A DNA stretch of 46,345 nucleotides. Source: a phage. The stretch lies in sequence record LC918680.1; one strand, 5' to 3'. The notes under the pieces are model-generated. The model was not told the origin of the DNA and did not search any database. It saw nothing but the letters and a program-made list of their open reading frames with translations. Numbering within the stretch: the stretch's first letter is position 1; each line of letters begins with the position of its first letter. Positions 1,690-45,214 of this stretch are shown here, one piece after another. The translations under genes and the position numbers were made by a program.

Positions 1690-2043
1690 ATGAAAGCAGT
1701 ATTTAAAGGGTATAAAAAAGATGGTTATTTTAAGTTTACCGTTGGTAAGATTTATGACTTATCAAGAACGCCTGGAAGTAATAATGAATACGTCAAAGTT
1801 AAGGATGATAAAGGCTATTTTGGCGTAATTAATCTTAGTGTTTATGATTTCGAAGTTATAGAGCCTACCGATTTTGTCGTTAAAGGTGATAATTTTAAAG
1901 TTGAAAAGGCTGGGATTAAATACTTCATCAACAAAAACATAGTAACTAAAGAGGCATTTTATGAAGTCAGAAGGGAGGTTCGCCAGTTAACACTTAATGG
2001 AGTGAAAACATCATCAATCAAGTTCGAAGTAAAATTCGAGTAA
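1690..2043 (+). CDS. hypothetical protein (AT-rich moron between terL and portal)
   Basis: ATG with SD GAGAGGAG upstream; boundary motif upstream and hairpin+T-run downstream; Lys/Tyr-rich, no recognisable motifs. Confidence 0.55.
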   Translation: MKAVFKGYKKDGYFKFTVGKIYDLSRTPGSNNEYVKVKDDKGYFGVINLSVYDFEVIEPTDFVVKGDNFKVEKAGIKYFINKNIVTKEAFYEVRREVRQLTLNGVKTSSIKFEVKFE

Positions 2044-7250: not shown

Positions 7251-7680
7251 AAATATTGGTGGGTTGGCTACATTTACGAATAGTATTGCTGATTGGATTG
7301 ATAGAGCTGATGATAACTTCTCTGATATTGTTTCTGGCACTGTAATTAAGGCTGCTAACGCCATCGTTGATTTATCGCCTGTTGATACTGGTAGGTTTAA
7401 GGCTAACTGGCAGATTACAGCGAACTCCCCAGCCGCCCAGTCTCTGAATGATTACGACAAAACAGGTGGAGATACAAAAAGGTATCTGGCAAGGCAAGCT
7501 CGAGCTGTGGCTAATTCACCAGCGACAAAGGTTATCTACATAACTAACAGGCTTGATTACGCCTCTGACCTTGAGTATGGAGCGTCACAACAAGCTCCAG
7601 CAGGTGTCCTTGGCGTTGTGAATATCAGGTTAGGAAGATACTTCGAAGAGGCAGTTGCCGAAGCAAGGAGTAAAAGATAA
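7243..7680 (+). CDS. putative neck/head-tail joining protein (HK97 gp10-like by position)
   Basis: ATG 7243 overlapping upstream stop; neck-module position; family assignment unverified. Confidence 0.45.
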   Translation: MARNIGGLATFTNSIADWIDRADDNFSDIVSGTVIKAANAIVDLSPVDTGRFKANWQITANSPAAQSLNDYDKTGGDTKRYLARQARAVANSPATKVIYITNRLDYASDLEYGASQQAPAGVLGVVNIRLGRYFEEAVAEARSKR

Positions 7681-8078
7681 TGCAGTATGAGCTATCCTTA
7701 GCAGCAAGGAGGTTTGTGACTGATTTGGTTAAAACGTTTCCAGTCAGGTATCCAATTTCCTATGAAAACGTAGCCTTCTCTCCTCCCAATAATGGTGGTA
7801 TGTGGCTGAAATACGATTACACAGAGGCAGATACCGTAACCTACAGCCTGAGTCGCAAGTGTAAGTACTATGTTGGCATGGTTCAGGTATCCGTCTTTTT
7901 CTCACCAGGTGATGGTGTCGACAGTGCAAGGAGGGTTGCTAATCAATTGGCAGAATCCATGACTGATGGTACAATGCTTGACACAGGCTACATTTATGAG
8001 GGCGGCGTGGTTCACCCAGTAGTGAAGTCAAAATCTGGCTGGTTTATTCCAGTTCGTTTCTATGTTCGTCTTGACTAA
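7680..8078 (+). CDS. putative tail terminator/completion protein
   Basis: 132-aa ORF start-overlapping upstream stop, immediately before major tail gene. Confidence 0.45.
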   Translation: MQYELSLAARRFVTDLVKTFPVRYPISYENVAFSPPNNGGMWLKYDYTEADTVTYSLSRKCKYYVGMVQVSVFFSPGDGVDSARRVANQLAESMTDGTMLDTGYIYEGGVVHPVVKSKSGWFIPVRFYVRLD

Positions 8079-8089
8079 AAGGAAAATAT

Positions 8090-8749
8090 ATGGCCCATCT
8101 TAGTAATGGCACTCAGGTCTTCGTAGAAGGCTCCAGGGGAGCTACTATTGACGTAACTGCAATTTCCAATGCTGTTACTCCTGTTTTAACTTTGTCCAGC
8201 GTTGCTGGTATTGCACGCGGTGATTACCTGCTATTTACCAGCTCAGCTTCGACCCTGCTGGCTGATAAGCAAGTTCGCGTTACCGAGGTATCTGATTCAA
8301 CCGTAACTGTTGAAGGTATTGATACCTCCAACACCACTAAGTTCCCAGCTGGCTTAACTGGTGAAGTTGTTAAGATTCTTACTTGGTTTGAAGTTCCTTG
8401 TGTTCATGACGTATCCACTGATGGCGGCGAACAGCAGTTCGTTAACTTCCAGTGTTTATCTGATGAACGTGAGCAGCAGATTCCAACTTATAAGTCTGCG
8501 GTAACCAACACCTACACGTTTGCGCACGAATACACCAACCCGATATATCCGATTCTGCGTAACTATGACGAAGCTGGTACTATTGTTGCTATTCGTCTGT
8601 TCGTACCTCGAGCTAGAGAGATGCGTCTCCAGTCTGGCACTATCGCTTTCAACGACACCCCAAGCATTGGTGTTAACGAAATCGAAACGGTATCCATCGC
8701 GGTATCTATCCGTGGTAGGTTGAGTTCTGTAGCTTCTGAACTGGCATAA
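8090..8749 (+). CDS. major tail protein
   Basis: 219-aa ORF before chaperone and tape measure genes, followed by strong terminator. Confidence 0.6.
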   Translation: MAHLSNGTQVFVEGSRGATIDVTAISNAVTPVLTLSSVAGIARGDYLLFTSSASTLLADKQVRVTEVSDSTVTVEGIDTSNTTKFPAGLTGEVVKILTWFEVPCVHDVSTDGGEQQFVNFQCLSDEREQQIPTYKSAVTNTYTFAHEYTNPIYPILRNYDEAGTIVAIRLFVPRAREMRLQSGTIAFNDTPSIGVNEIETVSIAVSIRGRLSSVASELA

Positions 8750-8756
8750 ATATAAA

Positions 8757-8778
8757 CCCTCTTCGGAGGGTTTTTTAT
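8757..8778 (+). terminator. intrinsic terminator after major tail gene
   Basis: CCCTC-TTCG-GAGGG + TTTTTT. Confidence 0.75.
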
Positions 8779-8781
8779 TGA

Positions 8782-8796
8782 TAGCACTTTTTGTTA
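8782..8796 (+). promoter_or_regulatory. boundary motif copy 2
   Basis: TAGCACTTTTTGTTA after major-tail terminator. Confidence 0.5.
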
Positions 8797-8857
8797 AAGA
8801 CCAAATCGCGGATTGCTGTATAGTTCATTCATCGAAACGAAATGAGATATTAGTGAA

Positions 8858-9106
8858 ATGAACAACGTTAAAAACATCATCAAACTTGCTGCTGCTCTTG
8901 GTGCTTTCTACCTGGCAATTCAGATTGTTAACCCAACTGGTGGCGAAACCGCAAACTCTGATGCAATAAAGTATGAACATGAATTTAATAGTGCATATTC
9001 TCATTGTGAAAAAGTAGCTGGCGATAAGACAAATCAGATTCTGCATTATGGTCGCGAGGTGTGCACCGAAGTTGCTCACAACATTGTAAAAAACGAATCA
9101 AAGTAA
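8858..9106 (+). CDS. small secreted/membrane protein (moron in tail module)
   Basis: N-terminal hydrophobic segment IIKLAAALGAFYLAIQIV; AT-rich; preceded by terminator, boundary motif and conserved CATCGAAACGAAA leader. Confidence 0.55.
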   Translation: MNNVKNIIKLAAALGAFYLAIQIVNPTGGETANSDAIKYEHEFNSAYSHCEKVAGDKTNQILHYGREVCTEVAHNIVKNESK

Positions 9107-9141
9107 TATAATCATTCAACACAAACAAAGGAGATAACGAG

Positions 9142-9456
9142 ATGGCAAAATTTAAACTTTCACTTAAGGCGCTGCCTGACTTTAAACTTCCGGTTAAGTT
9201 TCAGTTAGCGAATGGTGAAGATGCAGAGGTGGTACTAACAGTTAAGCACAAGAAATCATCTGAACTTCAGGAGATTCTTAATCGTGAAAACTTCAGCACT
9301 AAAGAATTGATTAACGAAATCTGCTCTGACTGGGATTTAGAAGAACCATTTACCGATGAGAACGTAGATGAGTTTGCCAACCTTTTCCCTGGTGCCGTTC
9401 CATCACTGATGGATAGCTACATGAAAGCGCTAGCAGGTCAGCGAGTAAAAAACTAA
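9142..9456 (+). CDS. tail assembly chaperone (lambda G-like)
   Basis: 104-aa acidic ORF directly upstream of tape measure gene; ends in slippery A_AAA_AAC. Confidence 0.6.
   Translation: MAKFKLSLKALPDFKLPVKFQLANGEDAEVVLTVKHKKSSELQEILNRENFSTKELINEICSDWDLEEPFTDENVDEFANLFPGAVPSLMDSYMKALAGQRVKN
9447..9453 (+). other. -1 programmed ribosomal frameshift slippery heptamer A_AAA_AAC
   Basis: X_XXY_YYZ heptamer in G frame 3 nt before stop; -1 frame open into T-like ORF. Confidence 0.55.
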
Positions 9457-9770
9457 AACGCGCAGTATACTTACAATACCAGTCACCGCCAACGGATGCT
9501 GAACTCGAAGCTATCGGAATGAAACGTTCCGATTATGAAGGTGAGGAGCCTGAAGAGTTATACTTCGATGAAACAATGATGCAAAGCTGGGATGTGTACT
9601 GTGCCATGTCAACTCAATGGCGAGTAGGGGCTTGCGGTGCCACAGGCCTTGATTATAATTGCCTTCCATTCTTATTCAAAGTCTATAAAATAGATGATGA
9701 CGAAATGGTACTTAACGACATCAGAATACTTGAGGCTAAAGCCTTAGATATGATGAACGCCAAGAAATAG
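9447..9770 (+). CDS. tail assembly chaperone frameshift extension (lambda T-like; expressed as G-T fusion by -1 frameshift)
   Basis: Frame -1 relative to G is open from the slippery heptamer 9447-9453 through 9770 with no stop. Confidence 0.5.
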   Translation, partial: KKLKRAVYLQYQSPPTDAELEAIGMKRSDYEGEEPEELYFDETMMQSWDVYCAMSTQWRVGACGATGLDYNCLPFLFKVYKIDDDEMVLNDIRILEAKALDMMNAKK

Positions 9771-9795
9771 CCATCCTTCGGGGTGGCTTTTTTAT
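9770..9795 (+). terminator. intrinsic terminator/attenuator between G-T and tape measure gene
   Basis: GCCATCC-TTCG-GGGTGGC + TTTTTT. Confidence 0.65.
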
Positions 9796-9807
9796 TATGG
9801 AGACAAC

Positions 9808-12789
9808 ATGGCAACTAACGAAATTGCTGGTATCACGCTAGCCGTCGACGTAGCTCAGGTCGATAAGGGTACGCAATCCTTACAGAAATTCAGGCAAGCA
9901 AACGAGCAAGCTGCAACAGGCATTAATAGCTTCGTCAACGCCGAACTTGTAGCCAAGACTCAAGCAAGGGACACTGCAAGGCAGCTTGAGGAGCAGCGCA
10001 AATCTTTCGCATCACTTCAGCAAGCCATAGACCCAACCGCTGCTAAATTCCTGAAGTTGCAGAAAGCAGCAACAGATTTGGACAAAGCATTTGAATCCGG
10101 GATAGTTCCTGATGATGAATTCTTCAGGCTTGGCTCTGTTATTGAAACTCAAATCAATAAGCTAAACAGGTCTAAAGCCGCTCTTAGCGAAGAAGGCAGG
10201 GCTGCACTACAGGCATCAATAGATAAAGAGAAAGCAACAACAGCAGCGCAAAAGTTCATTCAATCTCTTGAGAACGAGGCGAATGCAGCAAGCCTGACAA
10301 GGACTGAACTTCTTCAGCTTAAGGCTGCTCAGCTAGGAGTTAGTGACCAGGCTGCACCGATTATCGACAGGATTGGAAAGGCTGCCGAGGCATCTGCGGT
10401 ACAATTGCAGAAGCAAAGCTCCGCTTTTGTTAAGTCTGGGCTTAGTGCCGGTCAATACAAGCAAGCAATTCGACAGCTTCCAGCGCAGATTACAGATATC
10501 GTTACATCTCTTGCTAGCGGCATGCCAATCTGGCTTGTAGCAGTCCAGCAGGGCGGTCAGATTAAGGATAGTTTTGGTGGTATCGGCAATACAGCAAGGT
10601 TTGCACTGGCAGCCATTAACCCATTAACGGCGGTTGTTGGGACTCTGGGTCTGGCTCTTGGGGCCTTGGGTATTGCTGCTTATCAGGCTGATAGGAGAGC
10701 ACGAGAGCTAGCAGCAACAATAACGCTGGTTGGAAACTCAACAATCACATCAACAGGGCAAATAAACCAGGTTGTTGATAGCATTGAGAGTTCCACGCTA
10801 GCCACGCGCGGACTCATCCAAGAGATAGCGAATAGTCTTGTAGCAAACGGTAATCTAACGCTTACGCAGATAGATAAGATAACCAAAGCAACTGCTCAGT
10901 GGGCAACTGTTACATCAACGGATTCAAAAACTATACTTGGGTACTTTGACAAGATCACAAAAGACCCGGTTAAAGGCCTTGCTGAGCTTGATAAGCAATT
11001 TAACTTCCTTCAGTCCGGACAGTTAAAACACATAGAGAACTTGAGGAAGACAGCAGGAGAGACAGAAGCTGTAACGGCAGCTACTGAGCTATTCGCTAAC
11101 GTTATGGAGAATAGGCTGGAAGATGTTGCGCTAAGCCTTAACCCCCTTGAAAGTGCATGGAATAGCTTCAGAAAGTTTGTAAGCGACATTTGGGATAGAA
11201 TCGGCAAGCGCACACTTGGTGCTCTTAACTTAATAACTGACGTTGTTGCTGGTACGATTGAGCAGATAAGGTCGTTTATAAACTCAGGCGACATTCTTCT
11301 TGGTGAATTTGCTATCGCTGCAACCAAGACGCTTCAGTCAATACCGGGGCTTGGTGATGTAGGTAACGGCATAATTGCTGAGCAGCAAAAGGTTGTCGAT
11401 GCAGCCAAGAAGCAAAACGAGGAGTTAGCAAAAAGCATCGCTGAGCGAGATGCTAGGATCAGAAAGGGAGAGATGGGATATGTTAAGGAAAACAGCGATA
11501 TCAACCTAACTGGCAACAAACCATCAACAGATAAGGAATTTGCAGCAAGAAGGAAGGCGCTAGCTGATGAGCTTGATGGGATAAAGAAAGCGAGGAGTGA
11601 GAGGAACAAGGCAGTAAAAGAAGAAAGGGATTTAACCTTATCTTATGAATCTGGCGTTCTTGCACTTCAGGCTCAGCTAAAGGTTTTACAAGAGCACAGG
11701 ACGATAAACGATGTAATAAGTAACGAACGCAAGCAGCTATTCCAGGAGGAAGCTAAGTTTGCAATACTTGAGCAAAGGAAAGCGGATGGTGCGCTTACAA
11801 AATCACAGGCTAAGCTACTTGCGCAGAAGAATATCATTCTTGAACAGGCTAAACAGAAGGCTGAACTTGGTGACCAGATTGTGCTTCAGGAGAGGTCAAA
11901 CAAGTTACTTGATGACAACCTTAAGAAGACAATACAGATTACCAATGAGGCGAAGAATGTTTCACTTGCTGCGGGTCTATCCGAAAGGGAGCGGCAAAGG
12001 GCAGGAGAACTTAAGGCGCTAGAGTCCAATCAGGTAAACAAGGGTGGCTCTGTAGATGATGTTGATTTCCAGAATCTGCTGGAAGCAAGAAAAGAATACT
12101 ACAGGCAGGAAGATAACCTAAGGTCAGACTGGCAAGCTGGTGTAACTTCAACGCTTGCTGACTTAACTGAGAAGTACACTGACTTCAACCAAATTGCTAA
12201 GGATTTGACTGTCGCAGCTTTTGATGGAATTACCGACCAGATTACAAACCTTGTAACCACTGGAGAAACTAATTTCAGGGAGTTCACGGCAAACATACTG
12301 AAAATGATTGCGAAAATTGCAACTCAGCTACTTTTGGTAAAGGCTATTGAATCTACAATTAAGAGCTTTGGTGGTGACACTGGAGCAGGTAGTGCCTTTG
12401 AGTCAATAAAGTCAGCAATTGGCTTTGCTGGTGGCGGCTACACTGGAGACGGCGGGAAGTATCAACCTGCTGGAACTGTGCACCGCGGTGAGTTTGTATT
12501 CACAAAAGAAGCTACAAGCAGGATTGGCGTTAAGAACCTGTACAAGCTAATGCGAGGTTATGCAAATGGCGGCGCTGTTGGTGGGCCCTCTGGCTATGCT
12601 AATGGTGGAGTTGTTGGTGGCACGAATGTCAGTGTTGGCGGCGTGACGGTTAACGTAAACTCTGGAATTGGTGGCGGAAATGATGCTAAGGCGATAGAAT
12701 CTGGAGTTAAGGTTATCGTTGCTGAGGAAATCAGCAAGTCATTCCAGCAGGGCGGAAGAGCCTTTGCTTATCTGAGGGGTTACAACTAA
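9808..12789 (+). CDS. tail tape measure protein
   Basis: 993-aa ORF, coiled-coil-rich, Gly-rich C-terminal region, follows G/GT chaperone pair. Confidence 0.9.
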   Translation: MATNEIAGITLAVDVAQVDKGTQSLQKFRQANEQAATGINSFVNAELVAKTQARDTARQLEEQRKSFASLQQAIDPTAAKFLKLQKAATDLDKAFESGIVPDDEFFRLGSVIETQINKLNRSKAALSEEGRAALQASIDKEKATTAAQKFIQSLENEANAASLTRTELLQLKAAQLGVSDQAAPIIDRIGKAAEASAVQLQKQSSAFVKSGLSAGQYKQAIRQLPAQITDIVTSLASGMPIWLVAVQQGGQIKDSFGGIGNTARFALAAINPLTAVVGTLGLALGALGIAAYQADRRARELAATITLVGNSTITSTGQINQVVDSIESSTLATRGLIQEIANSLVANGNLTLTQIDKITKATAQWATVTSTDSKTILGYFDKITKDPVKGLAELDKQFNFLQSGQLKHIENLRKTAGETEAVTAATELFANVMENRLEDVALSLNPLESAWNSFRKFVSDIWDRIGKRTLGALNLITDVVAGTIEQIRSFINSGDILLGEFAIAATKTLQSIPGLGDVGNGIIAEQQKVVDAAKKQNEELAKSIAERDARIRKGEMGYVKENSDINLTGNKPSTDKEFAARRKALADELDGIKKARSERNKAVKEERDLTLSYESGVLALQAQLKVLQEHRTINDVISNERKQLFQEEAKFAILEQRKADGALTKSQAKLLAQKNIILEQAKQKAELGDQIVLQERSNKLLDDNLKKTIQITNEAKNVSLAAGLSERERQRAGELKALESNQVNKGGSVDDVDFQNLLEARKEYYRQEDNLRSDWQAGVTSTLADLTEKYTDFNQIAKDLTVAAFDGITDQITNLVTTGETNFREFTANILKMIAKIATQLLLVKAIESTIKSFGGDTGAGSAFESIKSAIGFAGGGYTGDGGKYQPAGTVHRGEFVFTKEATSRIGVKNLYKLMRGYANGGAVGGPSGYANGGVVGGTNVSVGGVTVNVNSGIGGGNDAKAIESGVKVIVAEEISKSFQQGGRAFAYLRGYN

Positions 12790-15333: not shown

Positions 15334-18300
15334 ATGGCACAAATGGTCAAAACAAATGCGGAGCTATGTGATATGGCGGAAGAAATTAAGATTTATGGAA
15401 GTAAGGGCGGACAGCCAAAGCAGCACCAACCTGTAGAGCAGCCTGATAACCTGATATCCGTAAACAAGGTTAAGGTTTTGCTAGCTGTTTCTGATGGTGA
15501 GGTTGATAGCTCATTCTCCCTAAAGGACCTTTACCTTGCTGACGTTCCTGTACAGAACCAGAATGGCACATACAACTACGAGGGTGTAACGGCAGAGTTT
15601 CGCCCTGGCACACAGAGTCAGGATTACATTGCCGGGCTAGAGGGTGCTAGCTCGGAAGTGCAAGTGAACAGGGAGATTAAAAACTCAACTCCTTACATCA
15701 TTGCTGTTAATAACACCCAGCTATCAGCGATTAGGGTTAAGCTGTTTTGGCCTCGTCTGATTAATCAGGAAAGTAACGGAGATCTTAACGGTACCACTTG
15801 CGAGTATGCGATTGACCTGTCCGTTGATGGCGCTACATACACTGAGTACACGCGCGGAGTAGTTAATGGCAAGACAACTAGCGGGTACGACAGAAGTATC
15901 AGGGTTAACCTTCCTGCTGAGTTCTCGAGTGCGTTGGTGAGGGTTCGTAAGATCACGGCAGATTCAGAAAGTTCGACGCTGGTTAACGACATGCAAATTA
16001 CGACCTATCAGGAAGTAATTGATGCTAAATTCCGCTACCCACTTACAGCTCTGGTTTACGTTGAGTTCAGTTCTGACCTCTTCCCTAACGGAATCCCGAC
16101 GATTTCAATCAAGAAGAAGTGGAAGTTGATTCGCGTTCCAACTAACTACAACCCAGAGACAAGGACTTACAGCGGAACCTGGAACGGCACCTTTAAGATG
16201 GCGTATTCCAATAACCCGGCGTGGGTTCTTTACGACTTGGTGACGAATCAGCGTTACGGACTTGACCAGCGAGAGCTTGGCATTACTATTGATAAGTGGG
16301 GTCTGTATGAGGCGGCGCAATTCTGTGACCAGATGGTTCCAGATGGTAAGGGTGGAGTTGAGCCGCGCTACCTGTGTGATGTTGTCATTCAGCAGAAAGT
16401 TGAAGCATATCAGGTAATCCGTGATATTTGCTCTATCTTCCGTGGGCTGACATTCTATGACGGCGAGCAGATAGGGATTGTTGTCGATAAGCCGCGTCAA
16501 CCATCGTACGTATTCACCAATGACAACGTTGTTGATGGATTGTTCAACCGTACATTTGGTAGCGATAAGTCACTTTACACGGTTGCCAACGTTCAGTTTG
16601 ATGACGTTGAAAACTCATACCAACAGGATGTTGAGCCAGTATTCGAGTTAGAGGCAACAAGGCGTTTTGGTTACAACCCGGTCGACCTTACAGCTATTGG
16701 ATGTACTCGCAGGAGTGAGGCAAACCGCCGCGGGCGCTGGTTATTAAAGACGAACATTCGCAGCGAGACTATTAGTTTCACTACTGGTCTGGAAGGTATG
16801 ATTCCAATGATTGGTGAGGTTATTGCAGTTAATGACCAGGCATGGTCTAGCAACTACACCCTTAACCTTTCTGGTCGTATCGAGTCAGTAAGTGGGTTGC
16901 AAGTTTTTGTGCCATTTAAGATTGATGCTACTGCTGGCGACAGGATTCTAATAAACAAGCCTGATGGAATGCCAGAGTACAGGACCATTGCATCTGTATC
17001 TGAAGATGGTATGACGCTTCAACTTAATACAGCGTTTAGCTTTACTCCTCAGCCTGACACAGTATTTGCGATTGATAAGGAAAATCTTGCTCTTCAGCAA
17101 TATGTTGTGACCGGTATTCAAAAAGCAGACAGCGATGGAGATGATGCGTTTGGTTACACGATTACCGCAGTTGAGTACGACCCGAACAAATACGACGAGA
17201 TTGATTACGGCGTAAACATTCAGGACAGGCCAACTTCAATCGTGGAGCCAGATACATTACTGGCACCCGAGAATGTTCAGGTTAGCAGTTACAGTAAGGT
17301 TGTTCAGGGTTTATCAGTTGAGACAATGGTAATCACGTGGGACAAGGTTCAGTACGCGAAAACCTACACGGTCCAGTGGCGCAAGGAGAACGGAAACTGG
17401 ATTAACGTGCCGCGCACAGCAAGCACAGAGGTTGATATTGAAGGTATCTATGCCGGAATTTACCAGGTTCGCGTAAGGGCCGTTTCTGATACTGAAAACG
17501 TATCCGCATGGTCTGACATTGTTTCAGTAAGCCTCACAGGCAAGATTGGGACCCCTTCTTCACCTACAGTAATCACCGCTTCAGATGATGAAATATTCGG
17601 CATTAGGGTTAAGTGGGGATTTCCTGAAAACTCAGCCGATACGTCATACACTGAATTGCAGCAAGTAGCCGACAATGGTGATGGTACTTATACACCAGAG
17701 AATGCTAGCCTTCTGACTCTGGTGCCTTACCCGAGTTACGAGTACTGGCATACTACACTTCCTGCTGGAAAGGTCATCTGGTACAGGGCGCGACTGATTG
17801 ACAAGATTGGTAACGTCTCACCATGGACTGATTTTGTAAGGGGTATGGCAAGCGATGATGTGTCGTCAATCATTGGTGATATTAAGGTTGATATAGAAAA
17901 CTCAGATGGGTTCAAGTATCTCCAGCAGAATGCCATTGAGTCAAACGGAGCTATTCAGGCGCAAGCGGAATCAATAATTGAGAACGCCCTGGCTAATGAT
18001 GGTGACGTGCGTAGAATGACGAAGGAAAACGGCAAGAGGAAGGCCGAATTTGTTCAGGCTGTGAATCTTATCGCCGATGAAGAAAGGGCTCGCGTAGAGG
18101 CTCTGACGCAGCTTAAGGCGCAGATTGATGATGAGATTGTAGCTTCATTGACAAGGATTGATACGGCGCTAGCGGAAGAGACGCAAGCAAGGACCACTGC
18201 GGACACTGCTTTATCTGCAAGGCTAGGTGATAATGAGGCTGCGTTAAATGAGAAGCTGGACACTTACGTTACTGCCGATTCAATTGGTGCTCAGTACGGG

Positions 18301-18776: not shown

Positions 18777-19091
18777 ATGGCTGAGTATGGAATTGCAACA
18801 TATGACGCGAACGGTAATTACAATAACTACGGGATTAGACCTGTAACAGTTGTTGGTAATATCTCGCTTGCTAATGGACAGACATCTGGTAGCTACAGCT
18901 TTACGATACCAGCAGGTACTAAGGTTAATTTCGTCGTCGCGACTCAATCTGACTCGCTAATTAGCTACACCAATAAGCGTTTAATATCCGCATCTGGAAA
19001 TACGATAAATATATCTGCAACAACAGGATATGGTAACGGCGTTACATCCACTGGTGCTTCTAATGTTATTGTCTTTCTGGAGAATGCGTAA
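18777..19091 (+). CDS. hypothetical Ser/Thr/Asn/Gly-rich protein (putative fibre-associated)
   Basis: 104-aa ORF immediately after J-like gene; composition resembles the next ORF. Confidence 0.45.
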   Translation: MAEYGIATYDANGNYNNYGIRPVTVVGNISLANGQTSGSYSFTIPAGTKVNFVVATQSDSLISYTNKRLISASGNTINISATTGYGNGVTSTGASNVIVFLENA

Positions 19092-19759
19092 TGAGTTATG
19101 GAGCGTACATAAATGTAAATGGTAACCCGTTCATAACCCAGAACTCAACGCCGATGGCGCTTTATAGAAAAGTTACAATTAACTCAACGAAATCAAATAA
19201 TTTCAACTCAGCTAGCGCCTCAGTAAACATACCAGGAGGAACGTCACTGATAGGTTTTGGGAGGACCAGTGGGTATGCAGCAATAAGTAGCTCAATATCT
19301 GGGAGTACAGTTTCGGTAAGCGCTAGCAACTACAAAGTTACAAATTTCACTCTTGAAGCTTATTTCTTTGCTATATTCCCACAAGAACTACCAGCGTGGG
19401 GTATGGCAATATGGGATGATTCAGGTAAGTTAATACTAACAAATGAAACAAAAGTAATGACTGACTTGATAACGATTGGTACGCCAGGAGCTTCTAGTGG
19501 AGGTGTGTTTATAGATACAACAATACAAGGTAGGAAGCTTGCTGTTTGCCCTGGGGTACTTGGTGCGGTTTTGCTTGCAGGCCCTCCTCAGCAGGGGCAG
19601 CCCACAATTCAGCCAGTCACGGCATACACTGCATGTCATGACCAAGATGGAGGAACAAGGTTTAGGTCAGCAACTTCAAGTAGCGCATCCGGCGGTAGCC
19701 TTGGAGCTTCAAACCTTGGAACAATAATGACCGCCATTGACGTTTCAATATATGACTAA
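19091..19759 (+). CDS. hypothetical Ser/Thr/Gly-rich protein (putative fibre-associated)
   Basis: 222-aa ORF start-overlapping upstream stop (TAATG); followed by strong terminator. Confidence 0.45.
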   Translation: MSYGAYINVNGNPFITQNSTPMALYRKVTINSTKSNNFNSASASVNIPGGTSLIGFGRTSGYAAISSSISGSTVSVSASNYKVTNFTLEAYFFAIFPQELPAWGMAIWDDSGKLILTNETKVMTDLITIGTPGASSGGVFIDTTIQGRKLAVCPGVLGAVLLAGPPQQGQPTIQPVTAYTACHDQDGGTRFRSATSSSASGGSLGASNLGTIMTAIDVSIYD

Positions 19760-19782
19760 GCCCCTTTCGGGGCTTTTTTATT
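19759..19782 (+). terminator. intrinsic terminator at end of + strand structural block
   Basis: AGCCCC-TTTC-GGGGCT + TTTTTT. Confidence 0.8.
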
Positions 19783-20002
19783 AACCACCACAGTCGTGAT
19801 CTTTAAAGTTAGACTCCGAAACGTAGTGGAAAGAGAATGGGTATCCAGCACGTAACAGTAGTTCGTCACCTCTTTGCTGAGTACCAAAAACATAAACCGA
19901 GTACTCTGACCCAGCAGATTCATAAATTGCGGTACAAGTGCGCTCAGGCATTGAAGAGCATCCAGTCAGTAATAACGCTGCGCAGATAATAAACTTTTTC
20001 AT
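19781..20002 (-). CDS. small lipoprotein, Cor-like superinfection-exclusion candidate
   Basis: MKKFIICAALLLTGC signal peptide with lipobox; 73 aa; convergent with tail module. Confidence 0.55.
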   Translation of the reverse strand: MKKFIICAALLLTGCSSMPERTCTAIYESAGSEYSVYVFGTQQRGDELLLRAGYPFSFHYVSESNFKDHDCGG

Positions 20003-20168
20003 AAAATCTCCTTAGAAGCCGTTAAAGTTTGAGGCAAGCAGCAGAACCCACACTAAGAAACCAGTTACAGAAGCACCCGCAAAAGTTGAAATTAAGTTAG
20101 TAGTTAATCTCTTGTTTAGGTTGTTTCGTTTCGATGTGGTAATCATAAACCATCATTAAGCTTTGTCT

Positions 20169-20858
20169 TTAGCTATTAGTGCTATTTGCAATAAACACAG
20201 CCTTTGCAAAACCGCGAGGAGTTAGGCTGCGGATTACCTTTGTCTTCTTGCTCTTTCCACCTAACTTCTTGTATTGGTCAGAGAATCCATCGTTAACGCC
20301 CACCGGAATCGCCTTAGGCCATTTAAACCCATTACCAAACCAAATGCATGTCTTCTTAGGATATGCGTCTCTTGGCTTTATTAGGTCGCTAAAAAACGGG
20401 TGTAAATCATCTTCCGGCAAATAGCCTCCGTATTCATATGGGTGGAAAGTCTTATTAGGCTTTCTCCAGAGTGATGACAGTACGCTGATTGGATTCTCAA
20501 TCATGTATGGGACTTCGTACTTATTAGCCAAGTTAAAAGCAACTTTACATGTTTCCGCAGCTTCAATCTGGAAGTTATGGTTAACCAGTCGCTTTCGCTC
20601 AAAGTGCCTTGACCCGCTCACGGCTAAATCCGTACACGGCGGGAACGCTAAAATGATATCAGGCTTCACATCAAAGTCGAAGTCGGCATCTATCCAGACA
20701 TTAACGTAGGTGATGTTCTCATGTCCAAATTTTGCATTTAAATCCACGTAACTACCGTGGTCAGACTCATCAAAGTTGAAACAGTAGCACTCGTGACCAG
20801 CCTCAGCCCAATCTTTCACAGCCAGCCCTGAACCATCAAATAAAGACCAAACAACCAT
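20169..20858 (-). CDS. putative DNA methyltransferase with C5-cytosine MTase-like motifs
   Basis: Motif I-like FDGSGL, Pro-Cys FPPCTDLAVSG, ENV-like IENP; start placed at internal ATG 20858 preceded by conserved ACGAGAGAGG leader (track start 20900 has no RBS); unusually short (229 aa). Confidence 0.5.
   Translation of the reverse strand: MVVWSLFDGSGLAVKDWAEAGHECYCFNFDESDHGSYVDLNAKFGHENITYVNVWIDADFDFDVKPDIILAFPPCTDLAVSGSRHFERKRLVNHNFQIEAAETCKVAFNLANKYEVPYMIENPISVLSSLWRKPNKTFHPYEYGGYLPEDDLHPFFSDLIKPRDAYPKKTCIWFGNGFKWPKAIPVGVNDGFSDQYKKLGGKSKKTKVIRSLTPRGFAKAVFIANSTNS
20170..20184 (-). promoter_or_regulatory. boundary motif copy 3
   Basis: - strand TAGCACTAATAGCTA overlapping MTase stop. Confidence 0.5.
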
Positions 20859-45138: not shown

Positions 45139-45214
45139 GTTCTGCTGGCGTAACAGGATAACGCAAAGACCTCCTAAGTCTTAGTTACTGGTTCGAGTCC
45201 AGTGCGGAACACCA
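45139..45214 (+). tRNA. tRNA-Arg (anticodon CCU, reads AGG)
   Basis: Manual cloverleaf: 7-bp acceptor stem (one G-U), 4-bp D-stem with GG in loop, 5-bp anticodon stem with loop CTCCTAA, T-arm ACTGG/TTCGAGT/CCAGT, discriminator A, encoded CCA. Confidence 0.8.

Follow-up and report, generated by a model that had tools for sequence, protein, structure and literature searches.

An accessory exported protein in the tail operon of a T1-like siphophage and its possible role in superinfection exclusion

The stretch of DNA analysed here (46,345 nt, record LC918680.1; hereafter the window) comes from a T1-like siphophage of the Drexlerviridae, subfamily Braunvirinae, and encodes, between its genes for the major tail protein (MTP; tail tube) and the tail assembly chaperone (TAC), a protein of 82 amino acids (aa) that we call ORF82 after its open reading frame (ORF). 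ORF82 is an accessory protein with an export signal, and the role we consider most plausible, tentatively and by analogy with gp15 of phage HK97, is the exclusion of superinfecting phages at a step after receptor binding. In the mechanism we propose, ORF82 would be transcribed from a copy of an ATAGCAC-type promoter as the first gene of a unit shared with the chaperone genes, and a Sec signal would direct to the periplasm a helical hairpin of ~53 residues that carries two invariant cysteines; because it would be exported there, ORF82 would not be part of the virion. It would act instead on the envelope of the infected cell, where superinfection would be excluded by disturbing the passage of the tail tip or of the tape measure protein (TMP) through the periplasm or inner membrane. 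We favour exclusion because envelope proteins are the recurrent theme of the slot in which ORF82 sits, because its leader is common to the exclusion gene cor, and because its exported domain exists as deeply diverged alleles under purifying selection.

An orphan gene in an exchangeable slot

Thirty Drexlerviridae loci, anchored on the chaperone gene, were compared. The gap between the MTP and TAC genes measures 76–130 nt and holds no gene in 22 of the 30, T1 included; here it is 392 nt long. Relatives of ORF82 occupy it in seven loci and the gene rtp34 in one (Rtp). Since the slot is empty in 22 of these 30 related loci, we conclude from gene content that ORF82 is accessory, dispensable cargo and not a core tail gene. 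Its location between the MTP and chaperone genes, after the terminator of the major tail gene, is as described in a first-pass annotation of the sequence and is borne out by the coordinates (Table 1). Gene order in the window matches that of phages Rtp and IME542, and the region from 8000 to 10000 is 93% identical to phages ES, AN_ECEAS, CY1, Rao1, TR2 and TR3.

The reading frame begins with ATG (protein start MNNVKNIIKLAAALGAFYLAIQIVNPTGGETANS) and encodes the N-terminal hydrophobic segment and the two cysteines that the same annotation had reported. Searches with tblastn found the protein in 82 phage records, with matches over the full 82 aa in all listed but three, and every record with retrieved taxonomy belongs to the Braunvirinae; a metagenome protein database yielded 46 ORF82 clusters, on contigs of ~45 kb. 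Nearly all of 45 aligned homologues are 82 aa long, with residues N25, P26, Y39, F43, C50, G55, K57, Q60 and C69 invariant throughout, and dN/dS within clades (pairwise Nei-Gojobori) lies between 0.03 and 0.3 in the signal region and the C-terminal domain alike. Because length is conserved and within-clade dN/dS is this low, we conclude from the sequence comparison that ORF82 is a genuine gene; an antisense ORF at 8825..9079 was ruled out by the purifying selection and conserved length of the plus-strand frame.

Residues 1–82 match positions 1–82 of the 82-position profile phrog_22925, a family of unknown function. No relative was found in Pfam (E up to 1), NCBIfam or the PDB sequences, and when 1.84 billion cluster representatives were searched exhaustively with a profile, ORF82's own cluster alone was found. 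Judged by these searches, ORF82 is an orphan family specific to the Braunvirinae lineage. The label 'exonuclease' attached to its homologue in phage ES (OR466728.1; 2359-2607 in our locus L002) is unsupported and was rejected as an annotation error; the tail genes beside that homologue are likewise mislabelled in the ES record.

The slot has received other cargo as well. Rtp34, a 128-aa lipoprotein unrelated to ORF82 (start MKAIIAIMATLLLAGC, lipobox LLAG/C), is found in four phages, Rtp, AugustePiccard, RobRod40 and MM01, where the terminator, repeat and leader before it are the same as before ORF82 (16380-16766 in the Rtp locus, L011; 1458-1844 in that of AugustePiccard, L042). In CY1, Rao1, TR2 and TR3, ~164 extra bases between the repeat and ORF82 encode a 46-aa peptide with two transmembrane (TM) segments (MILIGMLTAFFYYATGLTFWVSLGAAIGTYFVSALLALIVRALRNR; phrog_16572, E 2e-5; 2364-2504 in CY1, L001), which is unannotated in three of the four records. 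The gene for this peptide recurs in phiA2-1 (701-841, L044) beside the lysis genes, near the holin gene, behind an ATAGCAC repeat and, as in CY1 and its companions, a ATCGAAACGAG leader, and its sequence context suggests a small cassette that has been transferred by recombination at the repeat. We read the locus as an exchangeable site that is repeatedly filled with small envelope-targeted proteins, the repeat and leader apparently marking the junctions of the exchanged cassettes.

Divergence along the locus is uneven. Compared with clade B phages such as IME542, the window is 78–88% identical at the nucleotide level in the tail tube gene, 81–90% in the intergenic region and 81–87% over ORF82 codons 1–28; over codons 29–82 nucleotide identity is undetectable, the proteins being 38–45% identical, and in the chaperone, T and tape measure genes it is 66–73%, with 70–73% for the chaperone gene. 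No segment of the structural module is more diverged than the exported domain, and ORF82 as a whole is 56% identical to the IME542 protein, compared with 65–95% for each of the neighbouring genes. ACG-M12 carries a third allele with a differing N-terminus. The exported domain comes in at least three alleles that are deeply diverged from one another, each of them under purifying selection, a pattern typical of specificity determinants. Co-variation of the exported domain with the tape-measure block, as exclusion matched to a phage's own tail might show, was tested and rejected on a comparison of ACG-M12 and Rtp. The chaperone, T and TMP genes of ACG-M12 are of B type (84–97% nucleotide identity to clade B phages and Rtp), whereas the slot genes differ; since these two phages pair B-type TAC, T and TMP genes with different slot genes, the slot gene varies independently of tape-measure type.

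Export signal and predicted fold

The N-terminus of ORF82 has the layout of a Sec signal: a charged n-region (MNNVKNIIK, charge +2 from K5 and K9), a hydrophobic h-region (L10–V24) and a polar c-region with small residues, with the invariant N25–P26 as a helix break. The hydrophobic segment spans residues 7–24 and reaches Kyte-Doolittle maxima of 1.73 (averaged over 19 residues) and 2.08 (over 15, residues 10–24), and the positive-inside rule is obeyed, with a charge of +2 in residues 1–9 and −3 in residues 25–45. Small residues fit signal peptidase I (T-G-G/E here, G-x-A/ in most homologues), with possible cleavage predicted after G29 or A30.

Published predictor calls on a homologue agree with these features. 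In phage MSK, SignalP 4.1 found signal peptides in two genes alone, MSK_000011 and the cor-like lipoprotein gene MSK_000046, and TMHMM likewise flags MSK_000011; the major tail protein carries the tag MSK_000010 and the tape measure MSK_000014 (PMC8421802). OzMSK, as long as MSK (45,053 bp) and annotated independently, has the gene order tail tube, 82-aa ORF, frameshifted chaperone, tape measure. The MSK tag positions, together with this gene order, identify MSK_000011 as the ORF82 homologue. The MSK homologue is 56% identical to ORF82 overall and nearly identical over residues 1–28. The description of ORF82 as a small secreted or membrane protein is supported, for the export signal, by both the sequence features and these predictor calls. 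The signal could be either cleaved or retained as an N-in/C-out anchor, and in both cases the C-terminal domain is predicted to be periplasmic, a location that suits the two invariant cysteines.

Both cysteines, C50 and C69, lie in the exported part and are invariant among the 45 homologues. AlphaFold2 (AF2) models the mature 53 residues (30–82) with a mean confidence (pLDDT) of 89.8 as two helices, 31–54 and 57–81, with a break at the invariant G55. The full-length model is poor (pLDDT 66), and the mature-domain model alone is usable.

Putative promoter repeat, transcription unit and the moron label

The first-pass annotation had noted a 'boundary motif' and a leader ahead of ORF82, and both are present (Table 1), the former as a 21-nt direct repeat. 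They are not peculiar to ORF82: the motif is the published T1-like repeat, with ~16 uses in the genome. Its core, ATAGCACNNNNTGNTAA, is partly palindromic (TAGCA-N5-TGCTA) and is found 16 times in the window if up to one mismatch is allowed, against 0.38 expected, with none of 100 shuffles reaching 16. The leader occurs in five exact copies (8830+, 20124-, 22805+, 32224+ and 39783-) and in ten at up to two mismatches, against 1.3 expected (0 of 100 shuffles reach 10). When copies are aligned, the order is repeat, ~17 nt, a TATAGT-like −10 hexamer, ~5 nt, leader, a GAGAG-type Shine-Dalgarno sequence and start codon; copies other than that of ORF82 have TATAGT, TATCAT, TATATT or TATTGT hexamers at equal spacing, and the distance from repeat to start codon is 69–84 nt for most copies and 77 nt at ORF82. 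We infer from this arrangement that the repeat and the −10-like hexamer form a promoter element; a scan for the sigma-70 consensus did not call the repeat-type element upstream of ORF82, its −35 being weak. No stable structure was found in the leader RNA (z = +1.36), nor does it match a known RNA family.

A 21-nt direct repeat, aaATAGCACnnnTTGnTAAAA, has been described in phage TLS, in 21 copies oriented with transcription and ~76 nt before start codons; similar repeats were reported in T1, Rtp and Rogue1, and the authors left its role open between an upstream (UP) element, an enhancer site and a 'stoperator' (PMC11447400). Consensus, orientation and the ~76-nt distance to the start codon are all equal to those in the window, with no difference in kind; beyond the TLS description, the window repeat is found at the junctions of swapped small-gene cassettes. 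A text search of the literature for the repeat motif returned primer matches alone.

Repeat-type promoters stand mostly before non-structural genes (erf, helicase and many small ORFs). Two copies alone lie inside the structural module, that of ORF82 and that at 1617, before ORF 1690..2043. The latter ORF encodes 117 aa (phrog_14592, 'virion structural protein', with weak similarity to Rtp22), has a GC content of 31.9% compared with 43.6% for the window, and is probably what the first-pass annotation counted as its first moron.

Two further observations concern the same gap. The leader contains a three-codon mini-ORF, ATG AGA TAT TAG (8842-8853), whose stop precedes the ORF82 start by 4 nt; the slot leaders of ES, IME542, ACG-M12 and Rtp have equivalent M-R-x-stop mini-ORFs, which other repeat leaders lack, and the one here may simply be a by-product of the GAGA Shine-Dalgarno sequence. 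In the Tunavirus-type (T1-type) loci (L027-L041) the gap between tail tube and chaperone genes is free of cargo, yet it carries an inverted ATAGCAC repeat, TTAACAAAAAGTGCTAT, ~20–40 nt before the chaperone start and just upstream of the Shine-Dalgarno sequence (~18840-18856 in T1), and this repeat is conserved among diverged T1-type genomes.

The terminator hairpin after the MTP gene (8 pairs, 4 of them GC, with a loop of 4) is also found in CY1, ES, IME542, Rtp and ACG-M12, and T1 likewise has a terminator there. Between the ORF82 stop at 9106 and the chaperone start at 9142 (9107-9141, 35 nt) no terminator or hairpin was found. ORF82 would be the first gene of a short unit that runs into the chaperone genes and ends at the terminator with its stem at 9769-9788. 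Of the 'own regulatory signals' claimed for ORF82, the promoter-type element can be retained and a terminator of its own cannot, there being none before the chaperone gene.

ORF82 contains at its 3' end a sigma-70-like promoter, putative here, that is directed towards the chaperone gene. Other ORF82 alleles keep it as TTGCAA-17-TAGAAT or TACAAT despite the divergence of the protein, and the EC3a record has a predicted promoter annotated at its position; the C-terminal I-x-K-x-x-x-K probably owes some of its conservation to this embedded promoter. In Rtp, where the lipoprotein gene lies directly against the chaperone gene, the embedded promoter is absent, so that either the ATAGCAC promoter or read-through of the terminator must supply the chaperone. 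On this evidence ORF82 may be expressed either early or late. A daunorubicin study considered as a source of Braunvirinae expression data concerns Bas33, a T5-like phage, and was set aside as irrelevant.

The definition of a moron used here is that of Juhala et al. 2000 as summarised in PMC3594210: in the strict sense a moron has its own promoter and its own terminator, deviates in GC content and is expressed from the prophage (PMC3594210). ORF82 is an insertion between genes that lie side by side in relatives, and it plausibly has its own promoter. It is not an independent unit with its own terminator; its GC content of 39.0% is no outlier (window 43.6%, sd 4.0 over 249-nt windows; 13th percentile; chaperone gene 40.6%); and expression from a repressed prophage does not apply to a virulent phage. 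Drexlerviridae are described as virulent (PMC11447400), and no integrase or repressor is found in the genome of the closest fully annotated relative. The label 'second moron' thus holds for inserted cargo with a promoter-type element and fails for terminator, GC deviation and prophage expression. We consider 'moron-like accessory cargo' a fair label for ORF82, and 'moron' not.

Downstream, a canonical −1 slippery heptamer, A_AAA_AAC (9446-9452), lies at the end of the chaperone gene, and the −1 frame is open over 9438-9770, running from the heptamer through the DUF1799 ORF; a fusion of the lambda G/GT type is expected from this combination. The corresponding chaperone frameshift is annotated in the OzMSK record.

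Table 1. Coordinates of ORF82, its predicted control elements and other features of the window
Feature	Coordinates	Strand	Evidence and remarks
Tail terminator protein gene	7680..8078	+	
MTP gene (tail tube)	8090..8749	+	PF08813, E 7e-66
Intrinsic terminator after the MTP gene	8754..8779	+	stem 8754-8773 and T run; tail TTTATTGATA
21-nt direct repeat ('boundary motif')	8781..8801	+	ATAGCACTTTTTGTTAAAGAC; spans the −35 region and upstream sequence
Copies of the repeat core	1617, 8781, 20185(-), 22756, 28539, 29945, 32175, 33262(-), 34511, 35598, 39064(-), 39844(-), 40452(-), 41870, 42725, 44140		minus strand marked (-)
−10-like hexamer TATAGT	8819..8824	+	17 nt past the repeat; read from the sequence
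Leader (initial transcribed sequence)	8830..8842	+	CATCGAAACGAAA; conserved
ORF82, 82 aa	8858..9106 (stop included)	+	phrog_22925, E 4.7e-28
Predicted Sec signal (cleaved peptide or anchor), residues 1-29	8858..8944	+	sequence, hydropathy, predictions on homologue
Exported domain, residues 30-82	8945..9103	+	predicted helical hairpin; invariant C50, G55, K57, Q60, C69
Putative sigma-70-like promoter TTGTAA-17-TATAAT	9084..9112	+	10/12 matches; inside ORF82 3' end, facing chaperone
TAC gene (G-like)	9142..9456	+	PF08748, E 1.2e-32
DUF1799 'T' ORF	9519..9770	+	
First terminator downstream of ORF82	9769..9794	+	stem 9769-9788; 8 pairs, 5 GC pairs; tail TTTTTATTAT
TMP gene	9808..12789	+	
Cor cassette, T1-type, complete	18777-20185		phrog_557 18777..19091; phrog_425 19091..19759; cor 19784..20002 (-)
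tRNA gene	45139-45211	+	Rfam RF00005, 58.9 bits

Candidate functions and known systems

Among the evidence for exclusion is the phage's own exclusion gene, cor (phrog_1119, E 4e-27; protein start MKKFIICAALLLTGC), which is preceded by the exact leader found before ORF82. The cor start lies 183 nt downstream of its ATAGCAC repeat, and no start codon is obvious in the 120 nt that separate leader and cor. Since the T1-type Cor cassette is complete, the window phage is presumably FhuA-dependent, while within the ORF82 family JeanPiccard uses LptD and IME253 uses FepA. A family that tracks the outer-membrane receptor was rejected on these grounds: ORF82 occurs with LptD-, FepA- and Cor/FhuA-type modules and is independent of receptor type. 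Among the carriers of Rtp34 a receptor is reported or inferred for two: AugustePiccard uses LptD, and Rtp shares its rtp44/45 receptor-binding protein (RBP) locus at ~93% identity; JeanPiccard is an LptD user too, but its slot holds ORF82 and not Rtp34.

Several points weigh against exclusion as the role of ORF82. The window phage already encodes Cor. No sequence similarity or specific fold similarity of ORF82 to known exclusion proteins was found, and papers on T1-like phages and their relatives (TLS, KanT1, BASEL, MSK) yielded no experiment on the ORF82 family. The uncoupling of the alleles from tape-measure type would weaken any exclusion specificity matched to the tape measure, and the unit of ORF82 and the chaperone genes need not be early, the same promoter apparently supplying the chaperone in Rtp. 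In the hairpin model, judged from its secondary structure, C50 would lie opposite approximately residue 61 and C69 opposite approximately residue 42. The two cysteines appear out of register, an intramolecular disulfide is not obviously supported, and an intermolecular one, in a dimer or with a partner, seems at least as likely.

The evidence for export and for accessory status would also be consistent with envelope takeover or counter-defence, in which the hairpin inhibits a periplasmic or inner-membrane target of the host (a protease, an abortive-infection or nuclease defence, or a Ton/Tol component) and so protects the infection or its progeny. Allelic diversity under purifying selection would then reflect adaptation to variable host targets, and orphan status would suit a fast-evolving anti-host protein. 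We nevertheless judge this role unlikely: the data name no candidate target, and scans of Pfam, PDB and NCBIfam gave no similarity to anti-defence proteins, PADLOC and the anti-defence libraries not having been searched.

T1-like phages lyse their hosts with a pinholin and an endolysin of the signal-anchor-release (SAR) type, and a secreted or SAR protein in the manner of T4 RI might modulate the timing of lysis through the pinholin, the SAR endolysin or the unimolecular spanin (u-spanin). The N-terminal hydrophobic segment, rich in Ala and Gly (6 of the 15 h-region residues), and the helical periplasmic domain would suit such a factor, as would probable co-expression with the late tail genes; CY1's 46-aa companion of ORF82 adjoins lysis genes in phiA2-1, and Drexlerviridae lysis modules take optional accessories such as the SH3 protein of KanT1 (PMC13164509). 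However, ~27 kb separate ORF82 from the lysis cassette, for which ORFs 35926..37057 are the candidates; ORF82 has no homology to holin or antiholin families in Pfam or PHROGs, and is dispensed with by T1 and most relatives, which lyse without it, so that a role in lysis strikes us as less probable still.

Masking of the phage's own receptor by direct binding, as by Cor or Llp, would stop both superinfection and the loss of progeny on debris, and two facts point that way, namely that the alternative cargo Rtp34 is a lipoprotein and that ORF82 and cor have the exact leader in common. Yet ORF82 lacks a lipobox and has its first Cys at residue 50, its family spans LptD, FepA and probably FhuA phages, within clade B the LptD and FepA phages have closely similar alleles, and the window already has cor; receptor masking is accordingly very improbable. 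Least credible is a tail assembly or virion component that works with the chaperone and TMP, its hydrophobic N-terminus serving as a protein–protein or membrane-insertion element in the virion: ORF82 stands directly upstream of the chaperone gene in the same transcription unit, and the other repeat-driven gene of the structural module (1690..2043) falls in a PHROG annotated 'virion structural protein', but 22 of the 30 related tail operons do without ORF82, Rtp has a lipoprotein in its place, and ORF82 itself has a predicted signal peptide, is uncoupled from chaperone and tape-measure alleles and, a weak point since not all 13 bands are listed and 6–9 kDa is easily missed, has a homologue, MSK_000011, that is not among the SDS-PAGE virion tags named in the MSK main text (PMC8421802).

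Superinfection exclusion after receptor binding thus remains the role we put forward for ORF82. We hold it distinctly doubtful that the proposal extends to a whole family of periplasm-acting exclusion or immunity proteins in virulent T1-like phages, with at least three allelic types, independent of receptor and encoded at an exchangeable site for envelope cargo (Rtp34, the 46-aa peptide) that is shuffled at the ATAGCAC repeat. T1-like phages are notorious contaminants of laboratories and fermentations and also candidates for phage therapy, and to our knowledge cor is their sole characterised self-protection gene. Should the slot encode a second envelope function that is independent of the receptor, this would explain part of the cross-exclusion among co-circulating Braunvirinae, and the 53-residue domain would be a compact tool for probing the passage of siphophage tails across the periplasm. 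More broadly, the locus is an example of virulent phages that carry moron-like cargo, apparently exchanged at a short promoter repeat.

Comparison with known systems places ORF82 among small envelope proteins of several kinds. Rtp34 and the 46-aa peptide share its slot and are likewise small envelope proteins of unknown function, but Rtp34 is a lipoprotein, the peptide consists of two TM segments and ORF82 combines a Sec signal with a helical hairpin, and their sequences and sizes are unrelated. T4 RI, which regulates the holin, and T4 Sp are proteins of a virulent phage, <100 aa long, in which a hydrophobic segment at the N-terminus serves for targeting and a small domain faces the periplasm; their outline is similar to that of ORF82, although no homology was detected in Pfam or PHROGs and the genomic context differs. 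Cor (of T1, phi80 and N15) and Llp (of T5) are, as ORF82 is predicted to be, exported proteins encoded by virulent or temperate coliphages, and cor in the window shares repeat and leader with ORF82. In contrast to ORF82, which has no lipobox and no phrog_1119 match and occurs with several receptor types, Cor and Llp are lipoproteins matched to one receptor.

The closest parallel is HK97 gp15, the first moron to be described, a small YebO-like protein of the inner membrane that excludes superinfection; its gene stands between those for the chaperone and the tape measure, and the protein blocks genome entry in a manner that depends on the tail and not on the receptor (PMC3594210). Both gp15 and ORF82 are small, targeted to the envelope, encoded in a siphophage tail operon near the chaperone and TMP genes, and missing from close relatives. 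They differ in that HK97 is temperate and expresses gp15 from the prophage with a promoter and terminator of its own, whereas ORF82 belongs to a virulent phage and has no terminator of its own; relative to the chaperone genes ORF82 also lies on the opposite side, and most of it is probably in the periplasm, while gp15 is embedded in the membrane. The relationship of gp15 to YebO has no counterpart in ORF82, which gave no match in NCBIfam or in Pfam at E up to 1, a set that presumably includes the YebO model. Small exported accessory proteins are nonetheless a familiar kind in phages, and it is to this kind that ORF82 is predicted to belong.

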